This document shows, one piece after another, positions 21,291-55,715 of a stretch of 64,000 bases of DNA; position 1 is the first letter of the stretch, and each line of letters begins with the position of its first letter. The DNA lies in the IMG/VR virus record IMGVR_UViG_3300028886_000066, positions 32,001-96,000 of that record; one strand, given 5' to 3'. Origin of the DNA: a virus (taxonomy: Duplodnaviria > Caudoviricetes). The translations under genes were made by a program, and so were the position numbers. The notes beneath the pieces are model-generated. The model worked only from the letters and a program-made list of their open reading frames with translations, made no database searches and was not told the origin of the DNA.

Positions 21291-21291
21291 A

Positions 21292-28945: not shown

Positions 28946-29053
28946 TGTTGTAAGATTTAGCCAGAATGAGTTAGTCCCCATTCTGGCTACAAATGTACGA
29001 TTTTTTTCTGAATTAACCAAACTTGCAATATGATTATTAAAGAAAATTAAGAA

Positions 29054-30865: not shown

Positions 30866-33586
30866 TCAGCTGAAAGAAAATGTTCTTATACTTTTCACAT
30901 GTTTGCGGAGGAACTCGGGCACTTCCGTGTCGGACTCTTTGACATCGAATATCTCGAACATGCAGAGTGCTTCGATGAAGTCTGGAGAGTGACCGACAAG
31001 CGAACGTCTCTTCATGGTGTCTTTCGGTATGAGGCACCACCCTTTGTCCACCTTGCTCATGTCCTGTCTGATAGCCTTGCGCTCTCTTTGTAGGATGAAC
31101 TGCAGGTCGTTGGTGGCTCGTCCAGACTTGAACTGCCTTTTGAGCAGTGTCGGTTCGATGCTCCATTCTCCCTGCTGTGTGTGTTGTGCGAACTTGTATG
31201 CGCACTGCGACTTCATGCAGTCGTAGAGGTTTCTGTCTTCTCGTGCCACCGCTTCCTGGTTGTTGAACGGCACTGCATTAGGGAAAGCGCCCTTGAATAT
31301 CTGCCCGATTCCTTGCAGGTCATACACGAAGTTCTGTTCAAGGACTCCCCATTCGCGCAGCTTAGCCTTTATCAACGGTACGGTATTGTATGGGTCTACA
31401 CGGCAGACGTACAAGTCCTGTACGTGATTCCCGATTTTAAGCCATGTCACGCAGTTATCGCCTCCGTCACCAGCGACGTCGCACGATGCTCTGCGCACAT
31501 GGTCACCCATCATGGCGGCATTACTAAAGCATTTCTCCAAGTGGTACGGCTGTATGAGGTCATCGCCGACGGCTATGGCATCCCAGTTACCTTCCCACTC
31601 CTTTGCGCGTTCCTCTGGCGATTTGTTCAGTATTGAGGCGATGTAGTTAGGGTCGTTCATCAGCAGTGCCTTGTTCTCCATTATGCTGGCCTTGATGAAC
31701 ACTGCTGATTTGACTGCAAAGGACATCTTGTCGTAACCGAAGTCCTGTAGTTTCGGGTCCCATGAAGCGTCAATCTCCTCTTTTGCCTGCTCGTAGACCT
31801 CTTCGGGTGTGTTTCCCCATACTATGTTGTCCACGGAATCGCCTGTGATGAAGAAATAGCGTACCACACCGTTACGCCAAGGTATAGGTAGTCCGTGACG
31901 TTCAGGGTGTTTCTCTCCATCGGGATAGACGGTATCCTTGTCGGCTATCCACCAGTCGACGAACTTCCTGAGCCAAGACAGCGGGTCTGGGTTACACGTT
32001 CCGAGGATGCGTGAGCGTATGCCCACCGTGTTACGGTTGCTGCCCATGAGTATCTTCACGAACTCAAAGGGGATTTGCGGCAGCTCGTCTATCCCGATAT
32101 ACGGGTACTGCTGTCCTCTGTACTTGTCCTCGAACTCTTTCAGTGTCATGTCGAAATGGTCGAATGACATCTTCGCTCCAGTGTAGAAGTTCCATGTCAT
32201 ATCGTCTTTCGACTTGTTGTATCGCCCAAGGTTAGCGAACCATCGGCTGCTCTCGTTCTCGATGTTGACGAAATCGTCCTTGTTCTTACGGAAGAGAACA
32301 CTGTGAGAGTGTTTCTTCGTTATGTCGTATGCCCCCTCCATCAGCATGAGGGCAGTGTTGTGGTTTATGGTGTAGGCGTCAGTCAGGTACAGGTGTTCAT
32401 TACCTGATATGGTGATACATCTGCATTTCTGCTTTGGCTTATCCTTCGACACCCACATGACTTTCTTTGTGAGACATCCGTCAAGCTCTTTGATACTCTT
32501 CGGTATCGGTGCTATAATCTTCGCTCTGTTTCTTCGGCAAACGCTTTCCCAAAGCTTCTTTGCGTCAGGAGCCTTGATGGAGACGCGGTAGTAACCTATC
32601 TTATCCGGGTCGGTAGTGTTCTCAACGACCATGACAAAGCACCCTAACGAGCGTATCATCTGGGCCAGTTGCTCTGCCAGTCTCTTGTTGGGGAACTCTA
32701 CGTAAGGGCACATGCTTTTTGAGTAGCCGTTACGGAATAAGACCCCCTTGACAAAGTTCAGCCTTGTCTCAATGGATGCGTATTGATATTCGTGTGGTAT
32801 GTAGGCCGGAGAACCATTTTTGGCAGCTGTGACAGCCATTCTTGCCTCATTTTTGATTCCGACCACGCGGTAATTGCCGTTGATGTCTCTCTTGGAGAAG
32901 TATCCTTCACGATAGAATGGATAGCCATAGAACCTGTTCCGAATAGGTACTCCTCTTACGCTCAAGTCCCATGTACCCTTTCCAACGATATATCCGAGAA
33001 GGAGCGGATGTATCGGCATTATTCCGGGGACTTTGTATTCTTCATGTTCCACTTCTCCGCATAGAGGGAACTCGATGTAGTCGTATTGTCCGCGTTTGAG
33101 CGAGTATGGCGGTCTTTCGTCCATGCGGTAGATGTCGAAAATGTCTCTTGCCTCCCAAACCATGAAAGGCTCGTCTGGGTGTGAACGGGCGTAGAACCTG
33201 TGATTGTCCATGCACTTCACGGTCGTACCGTCATCGAAATGCAGAGTATAGATAGTCTGCTCACCATGTTCGAAGATTTCCGTAACTTCCTGAATACCTT
33301 CGTAGGGTGTGCATACAGGGTCTCCTACTTGCAGTTCCCCCATTTTTCTGAATCCCGTCGGTGTTGCCACCATCGTACTGTAGGGATTCGCTTTCCCTCC
33401 ACCTCGGTTTCCTCCGTAAATAATCAGGTCTGCATCGCTGTGAAGTCCGTCTTCCTGTGCACCCTTGTTTGGTATGAAAACCTTTGAATACTTGTTGTTT
33501 CCCTCTTCCCGTCGCAGTTCCTCTACGAACTCTGAGGTGCGGATGGGTCTGCCATCCCGCATGTTAAGTCCACTAAATTCTTGCAT
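30866..33586 (-). CDS. terL: Terminase large subunit containing an intein
   Basis: Walker A GGNRGGGK|T; Walker B YIGIDE; GTCNP; nuclease CDVAGDGGD and SPDFIEAL. Confidence 0.92.
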   Translation of the reverse strand: MQEFSGLNMRDGRPIRTSEFVEELRREEGNNKYSKVFIPNKGAQEDGLHSDADLIIYGGNRGGGKANPYSTMVATPTGFRKMGELQVGDPVCTPYEGIQEVTEIFEHGEQTIYTLHFDDGTTVKCMDNHRFYARSHPDEPFMVWEARDIFDIYRMDERPPYSLKRGQYDYIEFPLCGEVEHEEYKVPGIMPIHPLLLGYIVGKGTWDLSVRGVPIRNRFYGYPFYREGYFSKRDINGNYRVVGIKNEARMAVTAAKNGSPAYIPHEYQYASIETRLNFVKGVLFRNGYSKSMCPYVEFPNKRLAEQLAQMIRSLGCFVMVVENTTDPDKIGYYRVSIKAPDAKKLWESVCRRNRAKIIAPIPKSIKELDGCLTKKVMWVSKDKPKQKCRCITISGNEHLYLTDAYTINHNTALMLMEGAYDITKKHSHSVLFRKNKDDFVNIENESSRWFANLGRYNKSKDDMTWNFYTGAKMSFDHFDMTLKEFEDKYRGQQYPYIGIDELPQIPFEFVKILMGSNRNTVGIRSRILGTCNPDPLSWLRKFVDWWIADKDTVYPDGEKHPERHGLPIPWRNGVVRYFFITGDSVDNIVWGNTPEEVYEQAKEEIDASWDPKLQDFGYDKMSFAVKSAVFIKASIMENKALLMNDPNYIASILNKSPEERAKEWEGNWDAIAVGDDLIQPYHLEKCFSNAAMMGDHVRRASCDVAGDGGDNCVTWLKIGNHVQDLYVCRVDPYNTVPLIKAKLREWGVLEQNFVYDLQGIGQIFKGAFPNAVPFNNQEAVAREDRNLYDCMKSQCAYKFAQHTQQGEWSIEPTLLKRQFKSGRATNDLQFILQRERKAIRQDMSKVDKGWCLIPKDTMKRRSLVGHSPDFIEALCMFEIFDVKESDTEVPEFLRKHVKSIRTFSFS
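32357..33391 (-). mobile_element. 345-aa Ala1 intein with degenerate LAGLIDADG endonuclease
   Basis: ANPYSTMVATPTG...LQVGD; block B KCMDNHRF; block F CRCITI; terminal HN followed by T. Confidence 0.88.
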
Positions 33587-33613
33587 AGTAACAATTCTTT
33601 TGTTTACATGTGA

Positions 33614-33713
33614 CAAAAGTATTGATAAATAGCTCTCTTGCAATGTGTTTTCAAATAATTCTTCATTTTTTTCTTTAAACATATTGTATGAAAACCTCAA
33701 TTATATACATTTG
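33614..33713. promoter_or_regulatory. Divergent late promoters (terL and scaffold)
   Basis: TACTTTTG on minus at 33614-33621; box at 33638; TACATTTG on plus at 33706-33713. Confidence 0.7.
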
Positions 33714-33773
33714 TAGCAGAAAATGGCACACGGAGTGCCGTTACCAACACAAAAACTAAACTTTTTAGGAATT

Positions 33774-34577
33774 ATGGAGAAAAATCTTCTCATTGAAAAT
33801 TTGAAGACTAAGGCTGGAATCGACAACCTTAGCGACAGGACGTTAGACGAGGTGGCAACGGTCTTGCAGCCCATGTTTGCCGATGACGAGAAAATTACCG
33901 ACGAGAGTTGGAATCTTCCGATTCAGATGCTCAAATCGATGAGCGGCCAGCTTCGCCACGAAGTTGCCGATGGCATCAGCAAAGGCAAGGCGCAGTGGGA
34001 GAACGAGCAGAAGACGTCGCAGCAGAAGTCAATCGACGATGCCGTGGCTGCTTTCAAGGCTCAGTGGGAGAAAGACCATCCGTCCGACACGCCTCCCGCA
34101 GATGAAGGCAAGACTGACATTGCTGCACTTGTTGCAGAGCAGGTCAAGGCTCAGATGGCTGGGCTGACTGGCGAGAACAGCGAGTTTGCCAAGCTCAGTA
34201 AGCAGTTCAGCGACTACTTGAAGTTGCAGGCCGAGAAAGACAAGGCCGCAGCCGAGGCAGACGTCCGTTCGCAAATCAAGGATTTCCTTATCGGTCGCGG
34301 CGTGGAGGAAGATGACTACGCGCTTGAGATCATGCTGGAGAAGCTGGTTATCGGCGATAAGCCCGATGTGGTCGCTTTGAAGGCAAAGGCAGAGAAAGAC
34401 TATGAGGCTATCTACAAGCGGATGCACAAGGGCGAAAATGCCCAGCCGTTCGCTGGTGGTGGCGGCAGTGCAAATACTACAGTATATGGCTATGACGCTT
34501 GGGAAAAGAATCTTGATGCCATTGCTGCAGGTCAAGCCGCAGCCGCAGCCGAACTTGAAAAGCAGATATTCAAATGA
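33774..34577 (+). CDS. Capsid scaffolding protein (probable)
   Basis: Helical and charged; directly upstream of head genes. Confidence 0.65.
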   Translation: MEKNLLIENLKTKAGIDNLSDRTLDEVATVLQPMFADDEKITDESWNLPIQMLKSMSGQLRHEVADGISKGKAQWENEQKTSQQKSIDDAVAAFKAQWEKDHPSDTPPADEGKTDIAALVAEQVKAQMAGLTGENSEFAKLSKQFSDYLKLQAEKDKAAAEADVRSQIKDFLIGRGVEEDDYALEIMLEKLVIGDKPDVVALKAKAEKDYEAIYKRMHKGENAQPFAGGGGSANTTVYGYDAWEKNLDAIAAGQAAAAAELEKQIFK

Positions 34578-34662
34578 GGAATTTATCTGACTGCTGAAGG
34601 ACTGCAGTATGAAAGACGCGATTTAAAAATAAAAGTATTAACACACAAAAACAAAAAAGGAC

Positions 34663-35289
34663 ATGATTAAAGGTTATGACCAGACGGTAAAGGCCAGCGG
34701 CAAGATGGGCGGTGCGCTCGTCGTGTTCGAGGGTCATCCGTCACTGCTTGTCGGTGGTTTCGACTTTAATATGGCCGACCTTCCTGATGCAAAGGACGTG
34801 CTGCCCTGCGGCACTTACCTGAACTGCGACGATGTTACGCGCATCGCTACTCCCGTCATCACTGCGAAGGTAAAGGCTATTGACGGTACGAAGGTCACCG
34901 TTGAAGACCTTGGTTTCGGTAGTACTCCCTTCAAGGTCGGTGCTACTGTAGCCGAGTTGGGCGACAATCTTGCAAATGCCGCCACGTACTACGCAACCGT
35001 TTCCTCCAAGGAGGGCAACGTGCTTACTCTTAGTGGAGCCGTAACAGGTCTTGCCGTCGGTGACATCCTCGTTGAGGTTGACGCTACGGACAAGAAGGTG
35101 AAGGCTATACCCAATGCCATTCTGCCCTACGACAGATGGTATGATGCTGACGCCATCGCCGTCCGCTGTGACGGTATGTGGGCTAACGACCGTCCCATTT
35201 TGGAGCGTCGCATGCCCGCCTGCAATGATGCCATCAAGACGGCTCTCGTCAATGCTGGCTGTCAGTTCAAGTGGTCGAACCGTAAGTAA
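34663..35289 (+). CDS. Head decoration/auxiliary capsid protein
   Basis: Between scaffold and MCP; LPCGT and ERRMP motifs. Confidence 0.6.
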   Translation: MIKGYDQTVKASGKMGGALVVFEGHPSLLVGGFDFNMADLPDAKDVLPCGTYLNCDDVTRIATPVITAKVKAIDGTKVTVEDLGFGSTPFKVGATVAELGDNLANAATYYATVSSKEGNVLTLSGAVTGLAVGDILVEVDATDKKVKAIPNAILPYDRWYDADAIAVRCDGMWANDRPILERRMPACNDAIKTALVNAGCQFKWSNRK

Positions 35290-35305
35290 AGAAAGGAGTT
35301 AGATT

Positions 35306-36505
35306 ATGGCAACTACAAGAGCAATATCAGCCTACAACGATTACGACTATCGTAAGTACATGGATAATGCCACTTTCCGTAAGATCCTGGATAAGGCTAA
35401 CGACAAATACAACAAGCCAGGACTCGGTTGGCGTATGCTTGGCGACTGGGACCAGCCCAGCGACAGTAAGATTTGGTCGCAGGGTCATCGTACCGTTCCC
35501 ATCATGGCTCGCGCCTCGCTGCTCTCAGCCCACGGACTGAAGCCGATGCGTAACACCTCTGGTTGGAAGTTCTACACTGGCTCGACACCGAAGTTCGGTC
35601 ACGGCTATACCTTCGACGAGGATGACATGTTCCTGCTCCGCGACGTGCGTAACAATACTGGCCGCGACATGCAGGACTTGATTTACGACTCGCTGTTCGT
35701 AAACGCCCAGCAGATTATCGGCGGTATTCATAACGAGCTGTCTCACATGACCTTCGAGCTTGCCTCTACGGGCGGCATTAACGAGGCCAGTGTTGACGGT
35801 GTGAAGTATCAGTTCGCATTCGACTTTGAGGCTAACCAGTATCAGGAGGTTTCTCCCGCTTGGTTCACCGAGTCCGTTGACGGTACTATCACTGCCGAAG
35901 AGACAGGCGTGAACATCATCAAGGACATCCTCGACTTGCAGCGCATGCTCACCGTCAGCCAGAACCGTGACGTGAATGCTTGGCTTGTGAATATTGATAC
36001 GCTGTATCAGATTCTCGACCATCCTTCGGTACTGAAGTCATACCTTGCCAACAAGGATATTCAGACAGGCAACCAGGCTGCTTATATCGCAACGCGCACT
36101 GAACTGGTTCAGTTCCTCTACAACCGCGGTGTATGGCCTATCATCCCTGTTGACTTCAAGTCGGTACATGAGGAAGACGGTAAGCCTGTGGCCGATGCTC
36201 CCGCCTTTGACCCGCGCTACATGATTGCGTTCAACCGCAACGAGCGCATGTTCTCCATCAAGAACACCAATTCGATTTGGAAGGATCGTCAGGCATACGG
36301 CGGTATCTCTCAGAGCACTATATACTCGTTCATCGAGGGACGCATTGCCGCACTGAGCACTTGGTATGAGAACCCGATTCACAACACCGTCGAGTTTGAG
36401 TTGTACGCAGGCCCCGTGTTCAATAATATGCGCAACTGGGCTCGCGTGAAGGTCATCGGTGTGGCGAGTTCTTCGAGTTCATCTGCAAGTTCTTCGAGCG
36501 AGTAA
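35306..36505 (+). CDS. Major capsid protein with C-terminal SSSSSSASSSSE
   Basis: 399 aa; position in head module; PKFGH motif. Confidence 0.8.
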   Translation: MATTRAISAYNDYDYRKYMDNATFRKILDKANDKYNKPGLGWRMLGDWDQPSDSKIWSQGHRTVPIMARASLLSAHGLKPMRNTSGWKFYTGSTPKFGHGYTFDEDDMFLLRDVRNNTGRDMQDLIYDSLFVNAQQIIGGIHNELSHMTFELASTGGINEASVDGVKYQFAFDFEANQYQEVSPAWFTESVDGTITAEETGVNIIKDILDLQRMLTVSQNRDVNAWLVNIDTLYQILDHPSVLKSYLANKDIQTGNQAAYIATRTELVQFLYNRGVWPIIPVDFKSVHEEDGKPVADAPAFDPRYMIAFNRNERMFSIKNTNSIWKDRQAYGGISQSTIYSFIEGRIAALSTWYENPIHNTVEFELYAGPVFNNMRNWARVKVIGVASSSSSSASSSSE

Positions 36506-36524
36506 ACTCTAATCACTTGGAATC

Positions 36525-36929
36525 ATGGCTACATGCACTCACTCCAACGGTATGCTGACCATCAGGAAGTACTTAGGTGGCAAAGTCAGGAATATTAGGA
36601 TTCCTGACGATGCCATTCTGTCGATATGTGCCGATGCAGGCGTAGACCCCGACACTCTATATGCTAAGGCGACTCAGCGTCAGCGAGACCTGTCGCTTGC
36701 GTGGCTCTATGTATGGGTGGCAGGCAGTCCGACGCAGACGGGCGGTTGGACTGAGGAGAGTGCCGACTGGAGGAGTACTGACGGTGGTGAGCGTATGTCT
36801 GCTAGCGTACTCAAACAATACCTTGCTATGGCCAACAAAATCTTCGAGGAATACGACCTGCCTTGTGTGGGTGAGGAGTCTTGGGGATTTGTTGGCCGTG
36901 GCATCCGTAATCCGAGGAGATACTGCTGA
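36525..36929 (+). CDS. Head-tail adaptor (probable)
   Basis: Synteny after MCP. Confidence 0.55.
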   Translation: MATCTHSNGMLTIRKYLGGKVRNIRIPDDAILSICADAGVDPDTLYAKATQRQRDLSLAWLYVWVAGSPTQTGGWTEESADWRSTDGGERMSASVLKQYLAMANKIFEEYDLPCVGEESWGFVGRGIRNPRRYC

Positions 36930-37276
36930 TGTTAGAGAGACCTGATAACCCGCGCTTCCCTCACAGCTGCCGCATTACCCGTGCTGTAGATGAAGACCCG
37001 ATGGTCGATGAGAGCGAAAGCAATCTCATCTATGAGGGAAAGTGTCGAGCCTACGAGAAGAACACCACTTCGGACAAGGGAGACGTCCTGAACTCCTTCA
37101 GGGGTCTGGCTTTGCCTATAGACAGGGAGGGATGGATTCGGTATGGTAAGGTTCCACGCGAGGGCGATGAGGTTGTTGTTGATAGAGGTGGTTACACGGA
37201 ACGCGGACGTGTGGTTGACGTCAATCCCGCGAATTTCGGAGGAACACATTTGATTTGGAAATATGGCAGGCACTAA
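36929..37276 (+). CDS. Head closure protein (probable)
   Basis: Beta-rich; RFPHSC...IYEGKCR; synteny. Confidence 0.55.
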   Translation: MLERPDNPRFPHSCRITRAVDEDPMVDESESNLIYEGKCRAYEKNTTSDKGDVLNSFRGLALPIDREGWIRYGKVPREGDEVVVDRGGYTERGRVVDVNPANFGGTHLIWKYGRH

Positions 37277-37868
37277 TAAGACAATCGTAGAGAAGGCTTT
37301 CAGGGATTTTGAGAAGCGTATGGATCAGCAGGTATTCGGTCAACTCGACAAATACTGCAGGGACATCCTTCGCAAGGCCGTGTGGGAGCGTCAGCATTTC
37401 ACTGGCGGTCACAACTTCACGGGAAACCTTGTCAACTCGATTGTTGTCTGCATGTTCCGCAAGTCAACGGGCAAGAAGTACAAGTACTTTGCCTATGACA
37501 CCATCAAGCTTCCGATACGGCGTGAGCTGTCGGCATTGACATCCCGTGGCAAACGAAGGAAAAACAGGATTATATTCCACCCAGGCAGCAGGTATGGAAG
37601 TCAGGACTGGTCGGGAGAGTGGTCAACGCTCAAGCCCGATAATCTCATTCCTACGGATGAGAGCTGGGGTCAGAACGATGCGGTTCAGTTCGCGAGTATC
37701 TGGTATCCGACAAATACAAACATCGACTTTACGATTTGCGTGGCCTATGCTTCAGAGTATGCGTCCTTCGTCGAACACGAACGCCACACGACAGGTTACA
37801 TTAATACGCTTGACTATGCCGAGCGTATGGCTGTTGAGTATTACGGATTGAAACCCGCAACAAGATAA
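37263..37868 (+). CDS. Neck protein, HK97 gp10-like
   Basis: TGNLVNSI...EYASFVE. Confidence 0.65.
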   Translation: MAGTNKTIVEKAFRDFEKRMDQQVFGQLDKYCRDILRKAVWERQHFTGGHNFTGNLVNSIVVCMFRKSTGKKYKYFAYDTIKLPIRRELSALTSRGKRRKNRIIFHPGSRYGSQDWSGEWSTLKPDNLIPTDESWGQNDAVQFASIWYPTNTNIDFTICVAYASEYASFVEHERHTTGYINTLDYAERMAVEYYGLKPATR

Positions 37869-37872
37869 GGTA

Positions 37873-38286
37873 ATGGCAGAGAAGACAACCATAGCAAAGA
37901 TGTACGATGACCTCGTCAACGCCTTGGATGGCATTGTCGAGCGCAAGTTTATCTTCACAGGGGGCAGGCCAGACATCAAGGATGCCGACTTGGAGACGAT
38001 GCCGAAGTATATCGTCGTTGAACTCCCAGTCGCTATTGATGATATGGTGTTTGGAAATCACAAGTTCCACCTGACTACCACTGGAGTCTTCTACCTTATC
38101 TCGAAGTCAAAGAAAAACAGGACGTTCAACGTCAATACTCTTTCCGACTTCATTGAGGAGGTGACGGACTTGTTCCCCATCAGCGGGACTCACTTCGCAG
38201 CCGTAAATCCTGTCGTGCTGATGCGTGGTATGGATGAGTTTGGGTATCAGCTGGTAACAATCACATTTGATTTACATTCTAAATAA
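37873..38286 (+). CDS. Tail terminator (probable)
   Basis: Precedes tail tube; size fits. Confidence 0.55.
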   Translation: MAEKTTIAKMYDDLVNALDGIVERKFIFTGGRPDIKDADLETMPKYIVVELPVAIDDMVFGNHKFHLTTTGVFYLISKSKKNRTFNVNTLSDFIEEVTDLFPISGTHFAAVNPVVLMRGMDEFGYQLVTITFDLHSK

Positions 38287-38313
38287 TTTAATAACTATAA
38301 AAACAGTACGATT

Positions 38314-38880
38314 ATGGCAAATATTTTAGCAAGCGAAACCAATAAATTTGTTGGTATCAGCGCACTAAAGGTTGTGAAAGGCGGTTTTGCTGCCGGGTTC
38401 ACACTAGGCGGAAATAGCCTCGTAGAGGTTCCTGTTGCTGAGGACGGTGGCTTCACCTATACTGGTGGCGAGCCTTCCATCGAGCACTACAAGATTCACG
38501 GTCTGTCTGCCGACTGGACGAGCCGCACGACTCCGGGCGAGACGCAGATTAACCTCTTCATTCCGAGTATCACCAGCACTCTGCTGACCTTGTTCGGATT
38601 CTCTGTGACTACCGCAGACTCTGCAAGCGGAATCTCTGCCAATGCAAGCGGTTTTACGTTCCAGGAGAGCGCACTGGCCGTTACTCTCGGTATCGTTGCC
38701 TTCAACGACGAGGGTACCAAGGCGTTCGCCATCAAAGCAGCCAAGCTCTCGGCTACCATCGTATTCGACGAGGCCAACAGTGCAAAGCCTATCGGCATTA
38801 GTCTGACAGGTTTTACCTCTGCTGGTGAGGACGCCGATGCTATGGGTATCTTCGAGATCAGCGGTTCTTCGAGCGAATAA
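38314..38880 (+). CDS. Major tail tube protein ending SGSSSE
   Basis: Synteny; beta-rich 188 aa; followed by terminator. Confidence 0.7.
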   Translation: MANILASETNKFVGISALKVVKGGFAAGFTLGGNSLVEVPVAEDGGFTYTGGEPSIEHYKIHGLSADWTSRTTPGETQINLFIPSITSTLLTLFGFSVTTADSASGISANASGFTFQESALAVTLGIVAFNDEGTKAFAIKAAKLSATIVFDEANSAKPIGISLTGFTSAGEDADAMGIFEISGSSSE

Positions 38881-38900
38881 CTCAATCCATTCTAAACGAT

Positions 38901-38945
38901 GAGCGGTGGCGGTGAGGTTATAGTCACCGTTGCCGCTTTTTGTTT
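38901..38945 (+). terminator. Intrinsic terminator
   Basis: AGCGGTGGCGGTGA...TCACCGTTGCCGCT followed by TTTT. Confidence 0.75.
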
Positions 38946-38971
38946 GGGAAGGATTTTTAATTTTGTGAGGA

Positions 38972-41212
38972 ATGGATATTGACTACGTTGTCCCTATGGT
39001 TTTCGATGATGATGAGCAGTGGCGAAAAGATTATGTCACGGCGCATCATGTGCTGCGTTATGGCGGCGGTAATGTGAGGTATCGGTCGTGGGGAAATGAG
39101 GAACTTTTGATTAGGTGTATCAGAAAATTCATGCCCTTCGTGCGTACCATATATATTATATTGGCGCGGGAGAGTCAGAAGAAGGCGTGGATGGATGGTG
39201 AACATTTCGGAGAAGCGAAAGGCACGGTGAGGGTTGTTTATCATCGTGAGTTTGTGCCTGAGAAGTATTTGCCTTGTTTCAATAGCTGTACGTTGGAGAT
39301 GTTCGTACCGTTTATTGAGGGGTTGTCGGAACACTTCATTTATGGGAATGATGATATGTTCCCCGTGTCTCCGTTGAAAGAGACGGACTTTTTCGTCAAT
39401 GGATTGCCCGTGCAGCATCTTAGTGAGAAGGCTTTCCCTGATAATCCGAGCATATTCCATAAGAAATGCAAGAACCAGCAGAAGATGATTGCCTCTTCTC
39501 TGGGCATAGAGATTGGTGACACCCACTTACATAACGGGCATAATCTCGCACCTATGCTCAGGAGTTCATGTCTGGAGGTAAGGGAGATATTTGATAAGGA
39601 AATAACTGACGGTATAACTCCGTACCGTTCAGAGACGAGTTATAACCAATATCTTTATGTGTTGTGGCAGCATTTTACGGGAAGATATGTTGACGGCAGG
39701 GCGAAGAGTACCTACGTTTCGGTAAAAGAACCAGTCTCGCGTATCAGAGAGGTTATATGTAAATCAAAAGGGGTTGTTTGTGTGAATGACAATGAGCGTG
39801 CTGGCGACATAAGTGAACACGCCGCGCTTGTAAGAAGAATCCTTAACGAGAAATTGATGAGTAAGAAAGAATCTGATTATAGAATATGGGTCACGTACCA
39901 CCGTGACGAGTTGGTATCTCAGTATGGCTTATTGGATGATGACCACCATAAGTTGTTTGCCAGCCACAAAGATATTGAAGGTAAGAACATCAATCATCTG
40001 AATCCTGTATATTCAGAGATGGTGACGATGTGGTATGTGTGGAAGAATAATATCAAGAGTGAATATATTGGCTTTGAACATTACCGACGCCACTTGAATA
40101 TCCGCAGGATGCCGCGAAAAGGCGAATGTCAGGTGTTCAGGGCGATCAACTTCGGCAAACAGACGATTTACGAGCAGTATGCAAAATGTCACAATGTGAA
40201 GGATATTGACGTGATGCTTGGCATACTTGGGGGAAGGTTTGGTAAGTCTAATCCGTATGCAAGACATATCACAGAAGACAGTGTTCTGATTGCCAACTGC
40301 ACGTTCCTGATGAAATGGACTGATTTCAAGAAGTTGTGCGAGTTCATGTTTCCACTGTTGGAAGATTTCGCTGTTTTGTCAGGAATCAGGAACAACTCTT
40401 TAGAGGAATGGAATAATAAAGCTCAAAAGGATTTTGGTAATAATAGGACGGCATACCAGATGCGCGTAGTGTCTTTTTTGGCCGAGCGACTTATTTCCGC
40501 GTGGATAAATACGCATATGAAGTGGTGGAATGGTATTGATGTCGCTATCGTTCACTACAACACCCCTGAACTGACAGATGCGGCCATACGCTCTTTGAAT
40601 AAGTTTACGCCGGGATGTCGGGTGACTATCTTTGACAATAGCAACGAAAAACCTTTTGTCAACAGCTACAAGAATGTCTCTGTCATCGACAATACAAAAG
40701 GGCAGATAATCGACTTCGAAGAAATACTGAGCCATTATCCTGACAAGGAACTTAGCGAAAGAAACAAGAGTGATTTTGGTAGTGCCAAACACTGCAAAAG
40801 TGTTGACATATTGATGGACTACATACCTGACGGTTTTCTACTGATGGATTCTGACGTTCTTGTCACGAATGATGTTCGTAAGTTAGTACGTTATGACGTA
40901 GCCGTGTCAGGCATGGAGCATACGAAGGACGGCGTTACGCTGTTTCAGCCTTTTCTCTGTTGGATTAATGTGCCGATGCTCCGTGTGAATGACATTCGCT
41001 ATTTTAACGGCGACAAGATGTGGGCTTTGAGCCGTATATTCCCGAATAACAGATATGACACAGGTGCGTGGTTGTTTGAGGAAGTACGGAACAAGAACCT
41101 TGAATGGCTTGCGGTCGATATTTGGCGGTTTATCATTCACTTCGGTCATGGTAGCTGGCGAGATAAGAACGGCAGGGCATGGTTAGAGGAACACAAGGAT
41201 TTGTATGAGTAA
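38972..41212 (+). CDS. Tri-domain Stealth hexose-1-phosphate transferase, DUF4422 and GT-A (GT2-like) glycosyltransferase
   Basis: Stealth CR1 IDYVVPMV, CR2 YLPCFNS...GLSEHFIYGNDDMF, CR4 CVND. DUF4422 NHLNPVYSE...YIGFEHYRR. GT VAIVHYNT...FDNS...MDSD. Confidence 0.85.
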   Translation: MDIDYVVPMVFDDDEQWRKDYVTAHHVLRYGGGNVRYRSWGNEELLIRCIRKFMPFVRTIYIILARESQKKAWMDGEHFGEAKGTVRVVYHREFVPEKYLPCFNSCTLEMFVPFIEGLSEHFIYGNDDMFPVSPLKETDFFVNGLPVQHLSEKAFPDNPSIFHKKCKNQQKMIASSLGIEIGDTHLHNGHNLAPMLRSSCLEVREIFDKEITDGITPYRSETSYNQYLYVLWQHFTGRYVDGRAKSTYVSVKEPVSRIREVICKSKGVVCVNDNERAGDISEHAALVRRILNEKLMSKKESDYRIWVTYHRDELVSQYGLLDDDHHKLFASHKDIEGKNINHLNPVYSEMVTMWYVWKNNIKSEYIGFEHYRRHLNIRRMPRKGECQVFRAINFGKQTIYEQYAKCHNVKDIDVMLGILGGRFGKSNPYARHITEDSVLIANCTFLMKWTDFKKLCEFMFPLLEDFAVLSGIRNNSLEEWNNKAQKDFGNNRTAYQMRVVSFLAERLISAWINTHMKWWNGIDVAIVHYNTPELTDAAIRSLNKFTPGCRVTIFDNSNEKPFVNSYKNVSVIDNTKGQIIDFEEILSHYPDKELSERNKSDFGSAKHCKSVDILMDYIPDGFLLMDSDVLVTNDVRKLVRYDVAVSGMEHTKDGVTLFQPFLCWINVPMLRVNDIRYFNGDKMWALSRIFPNNRYDTGAWLFEEVRNKNLEWLAVDIWRFIIHFGHGSWRDKNGRAWLEEHKDLYE

Positions 41213-41232
41213 CAAAAAAAAAGTTGGATAGA

Positions 41233-41772
41233 ATGGAAAAAGAACCTAAGATTGAGCAGCCGTCCATTGAAGCACAGAGGACGTATGCCAGCATGAGAGA
41301 CAATGACGCGACTATTGTTCCCGTGTTAGGAACAAAGAAGAAATACAAGATTCGTTGGCTGAAGAAGGGGCAGATAAACAAATTGTCCCGACTTCTGATA
41401 CGTAAGTCCGGAACAGATGAAAAAGACGGTGCAAACGACTCACCTCTTGATGCTATTCGTGAGGATTCAAAGCTAACGTGCAAGGCCGCAGCTATTTATA
41501 TCCTTGACGGCTATTGGAAACTGAAGTTCCGCTACTGGTTCCTGTGGCGGTGGTTCTACTATATTAGGCAGTACGATGACGTACAACTTCAGGCTATACT
41601 TACGGAGGGTCAAAAAAAAACTCCGCTCACGCCGTTCTTGATAGCTACCATGTTACTGACAGAGGCAAGGGTTTCGCTAATGAATATGAGGACGGAAGAA
41701 GCCGAGCGTATCCTTCTCGCACAGCCTTCGGCGCAGCAGCAGGAGACGGAAAAGCCCGCCAATGGCTCCTGA
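41233..41772 (+). CDS. Tail assembly chaperone (G-like)
   Basis: After tail tube; A9 slippery run at 41612-41620. Confidence 0.6.
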   Translation: MEKEPKIEQPSIEAQRTYASMRDNDATIVPVLGTKKKYKIRWLKKGQINKLSRLLIRKSGTDEKDGANDSPLDAIREDSKLTCKAAAIYILDGYWKLKFRYWFLWRWFYYIRQYDDVQLQAILTEGQKKTPLTPFLIATMLLTEARVSLMNMRTEEAERILLAQPSAQQQETEKPANGS

Positions 41773-42077
41773 TGCCGAGGTACTTCCTGTTCGGCTTCAT
41801 TGAAGTTCCTATGTGGGACTATTATTGGGGGCTGACGGCTGCACAGGTAGAGCTACTGACAATCGACCAGCCTATTGTCGTGTATAAGGCCGACAAGGAT
41901 AATGACAAGCCATGGAAGAAAGGCACTGTATCTGAGGGGTATGCCAACAAGCAGTACCAGAAGTGGCTTGAGAAGAAGAAGAAGCGAGAGGCAGAGGGTA
42001 AAGACCTCGATTTCAGGACTGGCAGGAAAGTAGACTTCGGTCATTTCATTGCCACTGGAGAGAAGAAAGAGATTTAA
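41772..42077 (+). CDS. Tail assembly chaperone T-like part (probable -1 frameshift product)
   Basis: -1 frame is open from 41619 into this ORF. Confidence 0.55.
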   Translation: MPRYFLFGFIEVPMWDYYWGLTAAQVELLTIDQPIVVYKADKDNDKPWKKGTVSEGYANKQYQKWLEKKKKREAEGKDLDFRTGRKVDFGHFIATGEKKEI

Positions 42078-42093
42078 GCATCACATTTTTATT

Positions 42094-42152
42094 AAAGTCC
42101 ACACCGAGAAGAGCGATGGTATAGCCGCCCGTTCTTCCCAGTGTGGGCTTTT
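42094..42152 (+). terminator. Stem-loop plus T-run
   Basis: AAAGTCCACAC...GTGTGGGCTTTT. Confidence 0.55.
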
Positions 42153-42200
42153 GCCTTCCTGTGATGCGGGTGCATTGTTGAACATATAAATAATGTGTCT

Positions 42201-42428
42201 ATGAAGGCAGTAGAATTATTGAAAATCTTTAGAGAACCGTTAAATTTGATGTCAAAGAATGGCATCTTACTTGAAGACTACAAGTATGTTGAGGCTTACG
42301 AGCATTTTCTGCAGATGCGAATGTATGGCGTGAAGTACCGTGCTGCAATAGCTATTCTTGCAAAAGAATGGAATGTCGGAGAGCGCACGTTGCAGCGGGC
42401 TTTTAATAGGCTGTCCCAGGAGTGTTAA
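42201..42428 (+). CDS. Small HTH protein
   Basis: LAKEWNVGERTLQRAF helix-turn-helix. Confidence 0.65.
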   Translation: MKAVELLKIFREPLNLMSKNGILLEDYKYVEAYEHFLQMRMYGVKYRAAIAILAKEWNVGERTLQRAFNRLSQEC

Positions 42429-42560
42429 ATGCCGTCTTCTTGTGACTGCTGAAACGTGTCTGTATGCTTGCTGCTCGTTGGGTTAATGACTAACTTTGCC
42501 ATTGTCAAAGCGCGATGACAAAGAAATAATAGTATTAACCTAAAAATGCAGTATTTCGAT

Positions 42561-43493
42561 ATGGCAGAAATTTATAGTGTACCCGACAATTCGGGATCTA
42601 CTCCACAGTTTACAATCCCTATCGGTGGACTTGGTAATGGTGGTATGTTCGGCAATGGCTTTAACTCCATCGCTGATTTGTTCGGACTGGCAATCATAGC
42701 CTCAATGTTCGGTTGGGGTAACGGTAACGGCTTCGGCGGTGGCTGGGGCGGTGGCAATGGTGCTGCTGGTTTCCTTAGTAACCAACTCAATAACGATTCA
42801 GGTCGTGAGCTTATCATGCAGGCAGTGACCAATCAGGGCGAGGCTTCACGTACAGCGATTCAGTCACTTGCGACCGCATTAGGGCAGGATTTCACCCTTG
42901 TCAATCAAGGCGTACAGACCGTACAGAATGCACTCAGCAACCTTGCCTTGCAGCAGGCCGTGAGCGTACCTCAGATTATCAACTCCATACAGAGTGGTGA
43001 TGCAAGTCTTGCAAGTGCCTTCCAGAAGTGTTGCTGCGACCAACAGCTCGCTACTTGTCAGCAGACAAATACATTACAGAATGCTATCAACGGTGTAGGC
43101 AACCAAGTACAAGCAAAGGCTGCTGCCGACCAGTTGGCTATATGTCAGCAGACTTACGCTCTGACTGACAACATGAATCGCAACTTCCTTGCTATTGACA
43201 ACAAGCTTGATGCTATGGAGTCAAATCGCAAAGACCGCGAGATTACCGCTTTGACGGCAGAAGTCGCATCGTTGAAGTCTCAGAACTTCACCACAGGTGT
43301 TGTTCAGCAGGCTGTTGCTCCTATTCTTGGTCAGCTTGCTGGCATCCAGAATCAGGTTGATGACATCAAGAACAAGATGCCAAATACCATCGCAGTAACA
43401 TATCCAAATGTTACCGCCGTAAACAACACTCCATATATGGGTGGTTGGAATGGTTTTTATGGTAACGGGTTCGGCAACCAGATTGTGTTTTAA
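42561..43493 (+). CDS. Gly-rich TM and Gln-rich coiled-coil protein with CCC motif
   Basis: GFGGGWGGG; QKCCCD; own TAACTTTG promoter at 42491. Confidence 0.8.
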   Translation: MAEIYSVPDNSGSTPQFTIPIGGLGNGGMFGNGFNSIADLFGLAIIASMFGWGNGNGFGGGWGGGNGAAGFLSNQLNNDSGRELIMQAVTNQGEASRTAIQSLATALGQDFTLVNQGVQTVQNALSNLALQQAVSVPQIINSIQSGDASLASAFQKCCCDQQLATCQQTNTLQNAINGVGNQVQAKAAADQLAICQQTYALTDNMNRNFLAIDNKLDAMESNRKDREITALTAEVASLKSQNFTTGVVQQAVAPILGQLAGIQNQVDDIKNKMPNTIAVTYPNVTAVNNTPYMGGWNGFYGNGFGNQIVF

Positions 43494-43520
43494 CGATTAA
43501 GTGGATAGGAGGTATATAGC

Positions 43521-43853
43521 ATGTGTTTCAATAATGTAACAACAAATGCGGGAGGAATACCACTACTCGTTTCAACCGCAACCACTATTGGTACTGAGAC
43601 TATCGACATTGCAATGGGCTTCCGCAGGATTCAGCCTCTTGGCTATTTTACTCTCCGTATTTCGGATGTAATACCTGCCGATGCCACAACGACACTACCT
43701 GTTACTTTGACACTAAATGGCACTACACGTCAGTTGACACTCCCCAACGGAGAAAACGTCACTGCCGCAGAATTGCTGAACGTAAGTACAATTTTGGTGT
43801 GGAATGACAGATTCAACGGCTCGCTGATGTTAATGTCTCGTACCGTAGTGTAA
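43521..43853 (+). CDS. Hypothetical beta-rich protein
   Basis: Operon context. Confidence 0.75.
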   Translation: MCFNNVTTNAGGIPLLVSTATTIGTETIDIAMGFRRIQPLGYFTLRISDVIPADATTTLPVTLTLNGTTRQLTLPNGENVTAAELLNVSTILVWNDRFNGSLMLMSRTVV

Positions 43854-43885
43854 TACGCCCAAGCGTCTGGCAAGCGTTCTTTGAC

Positions 43886-44518
43886 TTACTGATTGACAAG
43901 AGATTTTTCGTAGTCGGATAGGTACATCCAACGTCTTTTTCTTACAGGTCTGCCTGTGTGTTTGATTGAGTCTATTATAGACGAACGTCCAAACCCATCC
44001 TTTCCTGCATCAGACATAGACTTATAATGCGTTACTGTTCCGTCTTTCGATATACATACCACTGGCTTCCATAGGGTAGTCATTTGCTTCCCTAAATGTG
44101 ATTCAGATTGCCGCTTTCTTGCAATTTGGTTCATGTTGTTTTCGGAGTGTGTACACCATCTGAGGTTAGACACAACGTTGTTCAGTCCATTTCCATCTAT
44201 ATGGTCAATTTCTGTCCTGTTGTTTGGATTTGGTATAAATGCAAAAGCAACAATTCTATGAACAAGAAATCGCTTCCGCTTGTTAAACTCGCTCAAATAC
44301 AGCATATAATATCTCTGTTTGCGACGTTTGATAACGGTTGGTTTAAGTAGTTTGGGGTATGTTACGGCAGTGTTATGACCATCAGACCTTGGTCTTGATG
44401 TAAACTTTCTAACCATCCTGCCAAAAGATGAAACCATGTAAGATTCCTCGTACCCAACTACATCTCGCCACTCTTCTCCTTCGAGTCTTATAGACTCAAT
44501 AAATTCTTTGTTTGTCAT
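43886..44518 (-). CDS. NUMOD4-HNH homing endonuclease
   Basis: EEWRDVVGYE; VHRIVAFAFIPNP; IDHIDGNGLNN; NLRWC. Confidence 0.92.
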   Translation of the reverse strand: MTNKEFIESIRLEGEEWRDVVGYEESYMVSSFGRMVRKFTSRPRSDGHNTAVTYPKLLKPTVIKRRKQRYYMLYLSEFNKRKRFLVHRIVAFAFIPNPNNRTEIDHIDGNGLNNVVSNLRWCTHSENNMNQIARKRQSESHLGKQMTTLWKPVVCISKDGTVTHYKSMSDAGKDGFGRSSIIDSIKHTGRPVRKRRWMYLSDYEKSLVNQ

Positions 44519-44664
44519 TTTTCTTTCTGAGTTAAATAACTTCTGAGATTTTAAAAAAGGGAAGAGCCTCAGAAATACTCTTGTCAGTCGGTGGCCAAAC
44601 CAACCTATCCCGATGCAAAGGTACAAATAAATTAGTGAATAAACAAAATTTAAAGTAAAAAACA

Positions 44665-45207
44665 ATGGATTTCAATGCCTTGGGAGCGGGTCAGCCGTTC
44701 TACGTTTTACAGAAAAGTGAGAAGCCTGTTTTACAGGTAGGTGTGGTAAAGTCAAAGAGCGAGCCCAAATCGCCCTATCAGACGAACCAGCCTGCGATAT
44801 TCAATGGTCTTGCCTCAATGCAGGTCCAGAACCTCGTAGTCGATATGGTGGTTACGCTCAACGGTGCTGACGTGCCTTTCAGCAACCTTCCAATGAATGC
44901 CGAGACGTCATCATACAACAATGGACAGACGTTTGTCAGTTGCAGCCGTGAGGCGATGCTTCAAGGCGTGGACTCGATGATACAGGCGTCAAGGAAGGCT
45001 CTTGAGCAGGTAGGTTATCACGAGTCCGTCCTTTCTGAAGGTGAGAAGATGCTTGAAACGCTTAATCCCCGCTACGCCGAGGAGAAGCAGCGTGACCGTA
45101 GTATCAAGTCCTTGGAGGAGCGTCAGGCGGCTACCGACAGCAAGCTCGACAAGATTCTCTCGCGTCTCGACGAGTTCTTTGCGCCATCCAAGAAACAGAA
45201 TCCTTAA
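44665..45207 (+). CDS. Hypothetical protein with C-terminal coiled coil
   Basis: Continues the cassette after the HNH gene. Confidence 0.8.
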   Translation: MDFNALGAGQPFYVLQKSEKPVLQVGVVKSKSEPKSPYQTNQPAIFNGLASMQVQNLVVDMVVTLNGADVPFSNLPMNAETSSYNNGQTFVSCSREAMLQGVDSMIQASRKALEQVGYHESVLSEGEKMLETLNPRYAEEKQRDRSIKSLEERQAATDSKLDKILSRLDEFFAPSKKQNP

Positions 45208-45220
45208 ACAAGTTACGATT

Positions 45221-45457
45221 ATGGGAAGACATTTTATCATTGTAGACGATAAGCACACTGATGACGGCTATCGTCGTGAGGAAATGTACCGTCGCATGAA
45301 TGGTGGCTATCGCAATGACGGTTACCGTATGCACGAAGGCAGCAAGGAGAAGGAGTACGACGAGGGCTACCGCACAGGTTATGAGCATGGCTATAAAGAC
45401 CATGAGCAGGATGAGAACTGGCGTCGTATGCGCGACTCTCGCGGACGGTATATGTAG
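45221..45457 (+). CDS. Low-complexity R/Y/G/E protein
   Basis: GYR repeats; RMRDSRGRYM end. Confidence 0.7.
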   Translation: MGRHFIIVDDKHTDDGYRREEMYRRMNGGYRNDGYRMHEGSKEKEYDEGYRTGYEHGYKDHEQDENWRRMRDSRGRYM

Positions 45458-45518
45458 TTAATAATGGGGTGGGTGTTTAGTTACGCCCATCCCTATATTG
45501 TATAAAAGACGGATAAAT

Positions 45519-45917
45519 ATGAAACAGTATATTTCAGAAGACAGGGCTATCTATGAAGACCTGTATAAAGGCCAGTTCAGCAGGAAGCTGGCTCAGTGGG
45601 CAATCTCTAATATGGAGGTGGAAGACCCTACTAATGGTGACATGAAGAAGATAACGCCTCGCTCGGCAGATGATGTCGCGGAAATTCTCTCTGCCAATAA
45701 GGTGAAGTTGCCAGACAGTATGTTCTATACGGCATGGTACTTGTTCAATATGGCCATCGCCGACTATCAGAAGACGTGCAAGACGGATGAGCAACGTGCA
45801 ACGTTTGTGGAAGAGACACTGCTTGACCCTGACGGTTGTCCTGAGAACACCCTTGACTGCTTTGTGACCAAGATGGGGAATGCTGGAATACCTATATTCT
45901 GGGAGAGATTCGTTTAG
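45519..45917 (+). CDS. Hypothetical protein
   Basis: Operon context. Confidence 0.78.
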   Translation: MKQYISEDRAIYEDLYKGQFSRKLAQWAISNMEVEDPTNGDMKKITPRSADDVAEILSANKVKLPDSMFYTAWYLFNMAIADYQKTCKTDEQRATFVEETLLDPDGCPENTLDCFVTKMGNAGIPIFWERFV

Positions 45918-45920
45918 CCT

Positions 45921-46328
45921 ATGGTAACGACTGGTTTTTGGATTGGTGACAGAGATTGGTGGATAATGGCATCTTTGGGTGTGTCTGACACAGAAGACCT
46001 GAATGATGTGTATGAGGCTTTGTTGTCCGTCGGTTGTCCTGACTATAAGGCGCGAGAGGTGTGTATGACGCTCTCTCAGCCGAACAATGGTTATACTTTG
46101 ACGGACTACGAGGGTAAGTACTCTCTGATGTTTGTCAGCTGGGCAACATCACCAGAGCAGATGTACGACTCCATCGACCATGAGAAGCAGCACGTCATTG
46201 CCCATATCAGCAAGTACTATGACATAGACCCGAAGAGCGAGGAGGCTGCGTATCTTGCTGGTGAGCTTGGGCGATTGCTTTTCCCCGCTGCATCGTATGT
46301 AGTCTGCCCGTTATGTCACGGTATATGA
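45921..46328 (+). CDS. Putative zinc metallopeptidase-like protein
   Basis: HEKQH (HExxH) plus EEAAY third-ligand-like motif. Confidence 0.55.
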   Translation: MVTTGFWIGDRDWWIMASLGVSDTEDLNDVYEALLSVGCPDYKAREVCMTLSQPNNGYTLTDYEGKYSLMFVSWATSPEQMYDSIDHEKQHVIAHISKYYDIDPKSEEAAYLAGELGRLLFPAASYVVCPLCHGI

Positions 46329-46537
46329 AGACTGGCTTATACCCTCTGAGCGACAGCGTCAACCTTCTCGTATTGAAGGGAGTGAACCTGTTGTCGCTTG
46401 ATGATGTAGACTCATGGCTATATGCTATCGGCATGAATGCCAGTGAGCGTAGTGAGGCGTGTTGTCAGTTGATTTCAGATGGTCATTTTGATGTGTGCAA
46501 CATCGAATATCGTGTCCATGTGAAGTGTTTGGCGTAG
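46325..46537 (+). CDS. Small hypothetical protein
   Basis: ATGA-coupled. Confidence 0.5.
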   Translation: MKTGLYPLSDSVNLLVLKGVNLLSLDDVDSWLYAIGMNASERSEACCQLISDGHFDVCNIEYRVHVKCLA

Positions 46538-46587
46538 TTAGGTTCTCTTTAATTGGAAGTGGGGTGGCATTCGTGTCACCCTTTGTT

Positions 46588-46663
46588 TTGCAATGTGTTT
46601 GCAAATATAATTGCTTGTTTTGCAGGTTGTTCGAGGAAATAGTTAAAGTTTTAATTATTTTTG
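46588..46663 (+). promoter_or_regulatory. Late promoter for tape measure gene
   Basis: TTGCAATGTGTTT box at 46588; TATTTTTG at 46656. Confidence 0.65.
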
Positions 46664-46688
46664 CCGTACAACACAAAAATTACGAGAT

Positions 46689-55220: not shown

Positions 55221-55715
55221 ATGGATTACAAGAAACTTCTCATCCAACAGCAGACGGTGTCTGGCTCTACGTACACCAATGTAGGCGTTGCAGTTGACAC
55301 GCAGACAGCGTTTAATGTTGTCTGTCAGGAATTTCCGTTCAAGTACTTGCCAGAGATAAAAGATTTGGCGAGCGAAGATTGGACTGACGAGGACGGCGAA
55401 GACGTCTTTATGCCCACTGAAGGCTTAAAATTCAAAGCTTATGACTTGGATGCTACATTCCTGTATGTTGGCACACAAGAGAGTATGGCAAATGATTTGA
55501 GCCAATTTATCAATTTCCTTTACGGGAGAAATCAGTATGGTTCGCCTTGGCTTGCTGTCTATGACGAGTACACGAAAACTGGCAGACGAGGTATTTACGT
55601 GAAAGAGGTCGGTAATGAGCTGATAGCATACGACAGCGCGAATGTAGAAGTGATAGGACAGTTTAAGGTTAAATTCCGTGTGACTGACCCGATAACAAAT
55701 GTGGTACTTAGTTGA
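55221..55715 (+). CDS. Distal tail protein-like
   Basis: After TMP; DWTDEDGED...FRVTDP. Confidence 0.6.
   Translation: MDYKKLLIQQQTVSGSTYTNVGVAVDTQTAFNVVCQEFPFKYLPEIKDLASEDWTDEDGEDVFMPTEGLKFKAYDLDATFLYVGTQESMANDLSQFINFLYGRNQYGSPWLAVYDEYTKTGRRGIYVKEVGNELIAYDSANVEVIGQFKVKFRVTDPITNVVLS

Follow-up and report, generated by a model that had tools for sequence, protein, structure and literature searches.

A Stealth-DUF4422-glycosyltransferase fusion in the tail operon of a putatively Bacteroidales-associated, siphovirus-like phage and candidate serine-tail acceptors on its capsid and tail tube

To our knowledge, the only phages whose particles have been shown by experiment to be glycosylated are some actinobacteriophages, in which the modification blunts recognition by antibodies, and phosphoglycosylation of serine (Ser) is known so far only in protists. 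Mycobacteriophages reportedly carry glycans on the C termini of their capsid and tail tube proteins through the action of phage glycosyltransferases (GTs) (Freeman et al. 2023, Cell Host Microbe 31:1216, via PMC12619734 and PMC11600133). Related enzymatic modules have been described in other settings: in WbbM, the N-terminal DUF4422 domain is the founding GT111 galactofuranosyltransferase and the C-terminal domain is a GT8 (PMC12269835), and the N-acetylglucosamine (GlcNAc)-alpha-1-P-Ser on Ser-rich proteinase and spore-coat proteins of Dictyostelium, along with the phosphoglycans of Leishmania, has been put forward, as a proposal, as a candidate activity of Stealth proteins (PMC1285062). In the searchable literature, we found no description of Ser phosphoglycosylation comparable to that of Dictyostelium in bacteria or phages, nor of Stealth or DUF4422 proteins in phages or of glycosylated capsids in Bacteroidales or Prevotella phages. 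Here, we analyze a stretch of 64,000 nucleotides (nt) (the window, to which all coordinates refer) from the tailed-phage record IMGVR_UViG_3300028886_000066 (positions 32,001 to 96,000 of that record) and, within it, an open reading frame (ORF) whose 746-amino-acid (aa) product joins a Stealth domain, a DUF4422/GT111-like domain, and a GT-A domain and lies between the tail tube gene and the putative tail chaperone genes.

[quoted passage not shown] Gene anatomy and the co-variation of Ser-rich tails with GT genes are what we observed; from these, we infer the remaining steps of the mechanism.

Serine tails and their association with GT genes

Two structural proteins of this phage end in Ser tails that are evident in translation: the major capsid protein, whose C terminus reads ...VASSSSSSASSSSE and contains the proposed acceptor tail SSSSSSASSSSE (36467..36502, plus strand), and the tail tube protein, which ends in ...EISGSSSE and whose proposed acceptor tail is SGSSSE (38860..38877, plus strand). 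Of the 132 ORFs in the genome, no others have at least three Ser among the last five residues, and both tails are encoded by mixed Ser codons with no simple repeat. An earlier note on this DNA, made from the sequence alone, had described the enzyme as adjoining Ser-tagged structural proteins, which agrees with the two translated tails. The 13-mer GTTCTTCGAGCGA is common to the capsid tail (at 36489) and the tube tail (at 38864), just 5′ of the stop codon, and AGTTCTTCGAG is present twice within the capsid tail; copying of the Ser tag between the capsid and tube genes would be compatible with these sequences.

The clearest single comparison is provided by a closely related locus (L037), the DNA of which is 91% identical to the window over 33001-38914 and resumes at 41218. 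Between these points, 2.3 kb are replaced by 47 nt, such that exactly the enzyme gene is missing. The L037 capsid protein (93% identical) ends in RVKLYSHYGE and its tube protein ends in GIFEIGS: both Ser tails are missing as well.

This pattern extends to a broader set of relatives. Related loci were drawn from IMG/VR, JGI metagenomes, and encoding contigs, and the 45 loci remaining after deduplication were each scored for the tube C terminus, the capsid C terminus, and the content between the tube and chaperone genes. Tube tails with SS occur in 14 of 20 loci that have a GT gene versus none of the 25 that lack one (Fisher p = 2.3e-7), and capsid tails with a Ser run (SSS) occur in 10 of 13 GT-positive loci versus none of 12 GT-negative loci (Fisher p = 1e-4). 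Stated as rules, "Ser tail implies GT" has no counter-example, and "GT implies Ser tail" is true of most loci, with some exceptions. The core proposal of the earlier note, that a phage-encoded multidomain transferase acts on Ser-tagged virion proteins, is supported by this co-variation across the 45 loci.

In distant relatives, GT modules are found as separate genes at the same position, and the Ser-tail pattern holds there: in one locus (L005), a stand-alone GT-A gene accompanies a Stealth gene, and in two others (L004 and L169), the Stealth gene is accompanied by a DUF4422-GT-A gene. In L167, a GT92 gene is added. Elsewhere among the related loci, L028 and L031 have Stealth as their only GT gene, and Ser tails are present. 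L004 also has a Ser-ended protein outside of the capsid and tube: the gene at L004:13074-13604 is a homologue (35% identity, E = 4e-28) of window 55221-55715, which encodes a 164-aa protein between the tape measure gene and a gene for a 2045-aa protein, and its product is extended by ESSSS beyond the ...VTDPIT..LS end that the two proteins have in common. In some lineages, therefore, further virion-module proteins can acquire Ser tags.

Because relatedness could inflate counts of co-occurrence, we mapped states onto trees computed from alignments from which the tail columns had been removed. At least 11 switches in GT status are seen on the tube tree, and 8 on the capsid tree, and the association holds on both. 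Across phylogenetically independent pairs, the Ser tail either follows GT status or stays as it is, and in no case moves against it. The best tube tree yields eight pairs in which tail and GT status shift together, none in which they shift oppositely, and three with an unchanged tail (sign test p = 0.008). The capsid and tube genes recombine independently, as tubes that are nearly identical can go with capsids sharing only 39% identity, and Ser-tailed capsids go with GT genes in both deep capsid clades (~38% identical).

The 746-aa enzyme

The ORF at 38972-41212 (plus strand) encodes three domains, as resolved in an AlphaFold model (mean predicted local distance difference test [pLDDT] of 79) for which an alignment of 18 sequences served as input; the ORF, Pfam matches, and model all agree with the three-domain transferase announced at this position by the earlier note. 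The first of these, the Stealth (hexose-1-phosphate transferase) domain, spans residues 1-297 (38972..39862, plus strand) and is identified by Pfam Stealth_CR2, by its match to CpsY, and by its fold. Stealth_CR2 (PF11380) matches residues 36-143 (E = 3.6e-25; 88.7 bits versus a cut-off of 39.4), and the phmmer alignment to CpsY (8j2n) covers residues 2-273 (E = 1.6e-17), taking in an IDYVVPMVF start (CR1 consensus IDVVYTF), a GH..AP block with R219, and a C.ND block; the Pfam models for CR1, CR3, and CR4 have no match at E ≤ 0.1 in the 746-aa protein. In structural comparisons, residues 1-297 resemble human GlcNAc-1-phosphotransferase GNPTAB (9bgf; Z = 28.6, root mean square deviation [rmsd] 2.6, 277 residues aligned) and Mycobacterium tuberculosis CpsY (8j2n; Z = 25.5, rmsd 2.3, 247 residues aligned). 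Mutation of E305, N322, D324, or R419 cripples or abolishes the activity of CpsY (PMC10668966), and E109, N126, D128, and R219 of the phage enzyme align with these four residues, respectively, and show no variation across 18 full-length and 10 stand-alone homologues. As read from the sequence, the Stealth catalytic residues are intact, and sugar-1-phosphate transfer is predicted.

The second domain (residues 301-516; 39872..40519, plus strand) is DUF4422/GT111-like: Pfam DUF4422 matches residues 329-514 (E = 2.3e-23; 83.7 bits versus a cut-off of 25), and there is a sequence match to WbbM (6u4b) with an E value of 1.6e-8, the similarity being limited to about 50 residues. Structurally, residues 301-746 align with residues 7-564 of WbbM over both domains (Z = 17.5, 387 residues), with a high rmsd (18.8) because the domains differ in orientation.

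The third domain (residues 518-746; 40523..41209, plus strand) is recognized by its fold and an invariant DSD motif (D626, S627, and D628) among its homologues. Taken alone, these residues adopt a GT-A fold (Z = 11-12.5 to WrtF, glycogenin, LgtC, and SpsA), and in relatives the domain also occurs as a stand-alone gene of ~230 aa. In the window's enzyme, it matches no Pfam family, including Glycos_transf_2, and searches with the domain alone against Pfam and with a profile against Protein Data Bank sequences returned nothing significant. Among nine homologues of this domain, three weakly match GT8 (best E = 0.0015, below the cut-off) and one matches GT2 (E = 0.043). The third domain is, then, an unclassified GT-A domain that is not demonstrably GT2. 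Of the Stealth, DUF4422, and GT2 profiles anticipated in the earlier note, Stealth_CR2 and DUF4422 were recovered, CR1, CR3, and CR4 gave no match, and GT2 was negative, its place being taken by a GT-A fold.

As that note had also supposed, the 746-aa protein has no signal peptide, nor has it a transmembrane segment: the highest 19-residue Kyte-Doolittle mean is 1.23, and the Stealth CR1-like motif runs from residue 2. The enzyme should be soluble and cytoplasmic, given that it starts at the CR1-like motif and has no hydrophobic segment.

Proposed mechanism and rival explanations

We propose that the 746-aa protein would act as a soluble, late-expressed glycosylation enzyme, the acceptors of which would be the disordered Ser tails of the two most abundant virion proteins. 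Its gene would be co-transcribed with the structural operon, 3′ of a probably attenuating hairpin (described below), such that small amounts are made beside the substrates in the cytoplasm. The Stealth domain would then move hexose(-NAc)-1-phosphate from a nucleotide sugar onto an acceptor, which could be either the hydroxyl of a tail Ser directly (yielding sugar-1-P-Ser, as in Dictyostelium) or an already attached sugar. The GT111-like and GT-A domains, arranged as in the galactan polymerase WbbM, would add or polymerize further sugars, and every capsid and tube subunit of the assembled virion would come to bear a glycan. Because L028 and L031, in which Stealth is the sole GT gene, still have Ser tails, it is probably the Stealth step that acts nearest to the protein acceptor, which in turn makes direct transfer of sugar-1-phosphate to Ser plausible. 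The pairing of the other two domains as in WbbM suggests extension and perhaps polymerization, and the recurrence of Stealth, DUF4422, GT-A, and GT92, either separately or in other fusions, suggests a modular system that yields different glycans.

A more specific version, which is possible but which we regard as rather doubtful, is that Stealth places sugar-1-phosphate directly on the tail serines and that the GT111 and GT-A domains polymerize a repeat glycan, such that a capsule-like phosphoglycan brush is built by one polypeptide. If so, each lineage among the related phages of rumen and gut could owe a coat of its own to the modular Stealth/GT111/GT-A/GT92 cassettes. A capsule-like or polymeric nature of the glycan and a phosphodiester link are both matters that we infer, the latter from family membership only. 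Immune or protease shielding and interaction with mucus are speculations as to purpose, and shielding of particles in the rumen or gut is a guess as to the benefit for the phage.

Several observations weigh against C-terminal glycosylation of capsid and tube, the support for which consists of sequence, folds, and co-variation. When only well-supported branches are considered, 4-5 of 5 changes are in the same direction (p = 0.06-0.125), a comparison that is underpowered and misses 0.05. One tube clade (L024/L025, L026, L069, and L070) has an intact stand-alone Stealth gene and, in the DNA scanned, no Ser tails on capsid or tube; another locus (L002) has a GT gene and a tube tail but no capsid tail, and the tails of L167 are only weak. 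In addition, the sole characterized GT111 uses UDP-galactofuranose (UDP-Galf), and no UDP-galactopyranose mutase (GLF, PF03275) was found in the phage genome, although the host could supply UDP-Galf. Lastly, the tube tail lies ~90 nt from the GT gene, so their joint transfer could reflect physical linkage. In the Stealth-only clade just mentioned, tube tails are of the ...GIF[DE]G... type and the Stealth gene sits between the tube and chaperone genes, with the Stealth ORF of L024 continuing into the chaperone gene; no other Ser-tailed ORFs were present in the flanking DNA scanned. A further locus has a 1.5-kb gap between its tube and chaperone genes (L039:4804-6330) with no plus-strand ORF of at least 100 aa and no homologue of a GT module, and its tube is without a Ser tail.

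The proximity of tube tail and GT gene, together with the blockwise recombination of phage structural modules and the Stealth-bearing phages that lack Ser tails, could point to the co-occurrence being a product of linkage or shared ancestry in a mosaic module, in which case the true acceptor would lie elsewhere and the tails would be linkers or sites for other modifications. We consider this unlikely. The capsid tails are 2.4 kb from the GT gene, across four conserved genes, and still follow GT status in both of the divergent capsid clades; no GT-less locus has a Ser tail on either protein; and the 91%-identical pair formed by the window and L037 differs at three separate sites together. Linkage could explain the tube tail but is a poor explanation for the capsid tail, and it is for this reason of distance that the capsid tail is stronger evidence than the tube tail.

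Alternatively, the enzyme might alter a polysaccharide on the host surface (capsule, lipopolysaccharide [LPS], or exopolysaccharide [EPS]) while it infects or lysogenizes the cell, one conceivable purpose being the exclusion of superinfecting phages, with the Ser tails being unrelated. Bacterial Stealth, DUF4422, and GT8-like enzymes do normally build capsules and O-antigens (PMC1285062; PMC12269835), distant homologues of the phage enzyme at 25-30% identity, including the bacterial Stealth proteins proper, sit in ordinary bacterial genomes, and Benler et al. read the structural-region GTs of "Gratiaviridae" Bacteroides phages in this manner (PMC8008677). We nevertheless judge such a role to be quite improbable: it leaves unexplained why Ser tails on two virion proteins are gained and lost with the gene, which itself lies in a late structural operon and not in a lysogeny or moron position, and no flippase, polyprenol-phosphate transferase, or membrane anchor was seen adjoining the gene in the window or in related loci.

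That the enzyme glycosylates phage DNA (hypermodified bases) against restriction, as do the GTs of T-even and other phages, is highly improbable, for although this is the commonest known role of phage GTs (PMC12619734; bioRxiv 10.1101/2023.12.21.572611), the complete genome has no thymidylate-synthase-family hydroxymethylase (PF00303 not found), the gene belongs to the tail operon rather than to the genes for replication, no action on DNA is known for Stealth or GT111 enzymes, and the co-variation with Ser tails would stay unexplained. A Tet_JBP search gave no match, but the control search also gave none. C-terminal glycosylation of capsid and tube stays the reading that we favor.

Genomic setting, distribution, and comparison with known systems

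The source record is 104,673 bp in length with a 133-bp terminal overlap, is siphovirus-like, and has a CheckV completeness of 100%. Its structural module begins with minus-strand genes for the large terminase and the portal. On the plus strand there follow a scaffold-like gene, the major capsid gene (35306..36505, plus strand; 399 aa; matching the phrog_29 major head protein with E = 2.6e-9), four small genes in the connector position, and the tube gene (38314..38880, plus strand; 188 aa). Capsid homologues in related loci show a weak match to Phage_cap_E. The enzyme gene lies within this operon, 91 nt 3′ of the tube gene and 11 nt 5′ of the first chaperone-position gene; 3′ of the latter pair are a ~4.5-kb accessory set, which includes an HNH endonuclease, and a 2570-aa ORF of tape-measure size. 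A terminator-like hairpin with a 15-bp stem followed by a T-rich run (38901..38938, plus strand; detected in a consensus scan) occupies the space between the tube and GT genes and is also kept in the GT-less L037; judging from its sequence, it is probably an attenuator that lowers expression of everything 3′ of the abundant tube protein. Searches at the level of whole regions and families returned little: megablast of window 35000-47000 against the phage collection found no match, PHROGs has no family for the enzyme, tube, or chaperones, Pfam identified no sugar-nucleotide enzymes among 10 other large ORFs of the window, and no tRNA genes were found in the window.

The identity of the tube protein is derived from an AlphaFold model (pLDDT of 72) and its structural matches, which include the tube of JBD30 (Z = 9.0), the major tail protein of YSD1 (Z = 8.0), Bxb1 (Z = 7.8), and dozens more. 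The protein itself matches no sequence family. Among the 40 best structural matches, almost every one is a tail tube or Hcp protein, such that the list is homogeneous, and the Z scores are moderate; the model contains a long disordered loop, and residues 185-188 are disordered. Foldseek returned no match to this model at E ≤ 0.001; the tube and Hcp matches came from a VIA-wide structural search. Downstream of the enzyme gene, two genes of 182 and 101 aa (41224-41772 and 41772-42077, plus strand) are, by position, putative tail-assembly chaperones. The second is read in the −1 frame, and this frame has no stop for at least 60 codons over the 3′ end of the first gene; slippery-like heptamers are present at 41615 and 41669. 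In relatives that have no local insertion, such as L026 and L169, the chaperone genes lie directly between the tube (or GT) gene and the tape measure gene. With a tube fold upstream and a chaperone-position −1-frame pair downstream, the original placement of the enzyme between tail tube and tail chaperones holds.

Other features of the window are incidental to the enzyme. The accessory block at 42195-46690 (~4.5 kb), which separates the chaperone pair from the tape measure gene, encodes a protein of 315 aa whose ends are rich in Gly (phrog_16490), along with members of several PHROG families that have no known function. Two HNH endonuclease genes lie inside the structural region on the opposite strand (43886-44665 and 27872-29020, both minus strand), and since window 43930-44417, in the first of these, has no counterpart in L037 despite the 91% identity, it suggests a mobile homing-type element. 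The large terminase ORF (30866-33700, minus strand) encodes 944 aa, but its Pfam terminase ATPase domain begins only at residue ~448; a Walker-A-like GGGK occurs near residue 100, followed by ~350 residues with no family match. As judged from this arrangement, the ORF could be carrying an intein or other insertion, although Pfam did not confirm an intein. Window 20001-22000 has a GC content of 0.53 and an AT skew of +0.35 (versus about ±0.1 elsewhere) and shares sequence with two ORFs on the minus strand (20040-21089 and 21292-22371), neither of which matches Pfam.

The nearest genome matches to the enzyme (41-51% identity) are rumen metagenome-assembled genomes (MAGs) labeled Bacteroidaceae, Prevotellaceae, Prevotella, or Bacteroidales, some contigs of which carry phage genes. 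These matches lend indirect support to the association with Bacteroidales that the earlier note had inferred. When clustered at 90% identity, the enzyme's homologues within the length range searched fall into 496 groups and take at least five module arrangements. The locus points to an analogous, independently evolved counterpart of actinobacteriophage particle glycosylation in a large group of siphophages associated with rumen and gut Bacteroidales, with enzymes that stem from the chemistry of capsules and O-antigens, including a sugar-phosphate transferase. If this is true, virion glycan coats would be a recurrent phage strategy in animal-associated ecosystems, a protein Ser acceptor would join the known repertoire of Stealth enzymes, and a compact pair of tag and enzyme (...SSSE plus one ORF) would be at hand for probing the effects of surface glycans on phage stability, interactions with mucus or host capsules, and immune clearance. 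The hypothesis lends itself to direct testing through natural pairs in which the gene is present in one phage and absent from the other, of which the window and L037 are an example.

Among described systems, that of Che8, Corndog, and their relatives is alike in that phage-encoded GTs are proposed to act on the same two C termini, those of capsid and tail tube; at the sequence level, the present phage has a GT along with candidate C-terminal acceptor tails on both proteins. The enzymes themselves are unrelated. A tblastn search of the 746-aa protein against 50,697 phage records (E ≤ 1e-5) found no match in a mycobacteriophage and only two weak matches, both to the DUF4422 domain, in uncultured human-faecal phages. 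The present phage further differs in having a Stealth sugar-1-phosphate transferase, a single fused polypeptide, another host phylum (the rumen phages being associated with Bacteroidota), and a compact poly-Ser tail that ends in E, N, or D, and the modification in its case is predicted.

Stealth enzymes (CpsY [8j2n], the capsule polymerases of Neisseria meningitidis, and GNPTAB) share with the phage domain their fold (Z = 25-29), CR2, and the four residues critical in CpsY. The phage domain differs from them in its minimal size (about 297 aa), in lacking spacers and membrane regions, in being fused to two GT domains, in failing to score with the other three Pfam models of the family, and in its proposed acceptor, which is a Ser tail on a protein and not a glycan. 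Eukaryotic Ser phosphoglycosylation resembles the proposed system in combining a Ser-rich acceptor with the chemistry of sugar-1-phosphate transfer but takes place in the secretory pathway of eukaryotes. Finally, WbbM of Klebsiella pneumoniae O2a (6u4b), a GT111 plus GT8 galactan polymerase, displays the same order of DUF4422 and then GT-A in one chain; the C-terminal domain of the phage enzyme does not score as a GT8, the phage has no gene for the supply of UDP-Galf, and a role as polymerase is, for the phage enzyme, putative.

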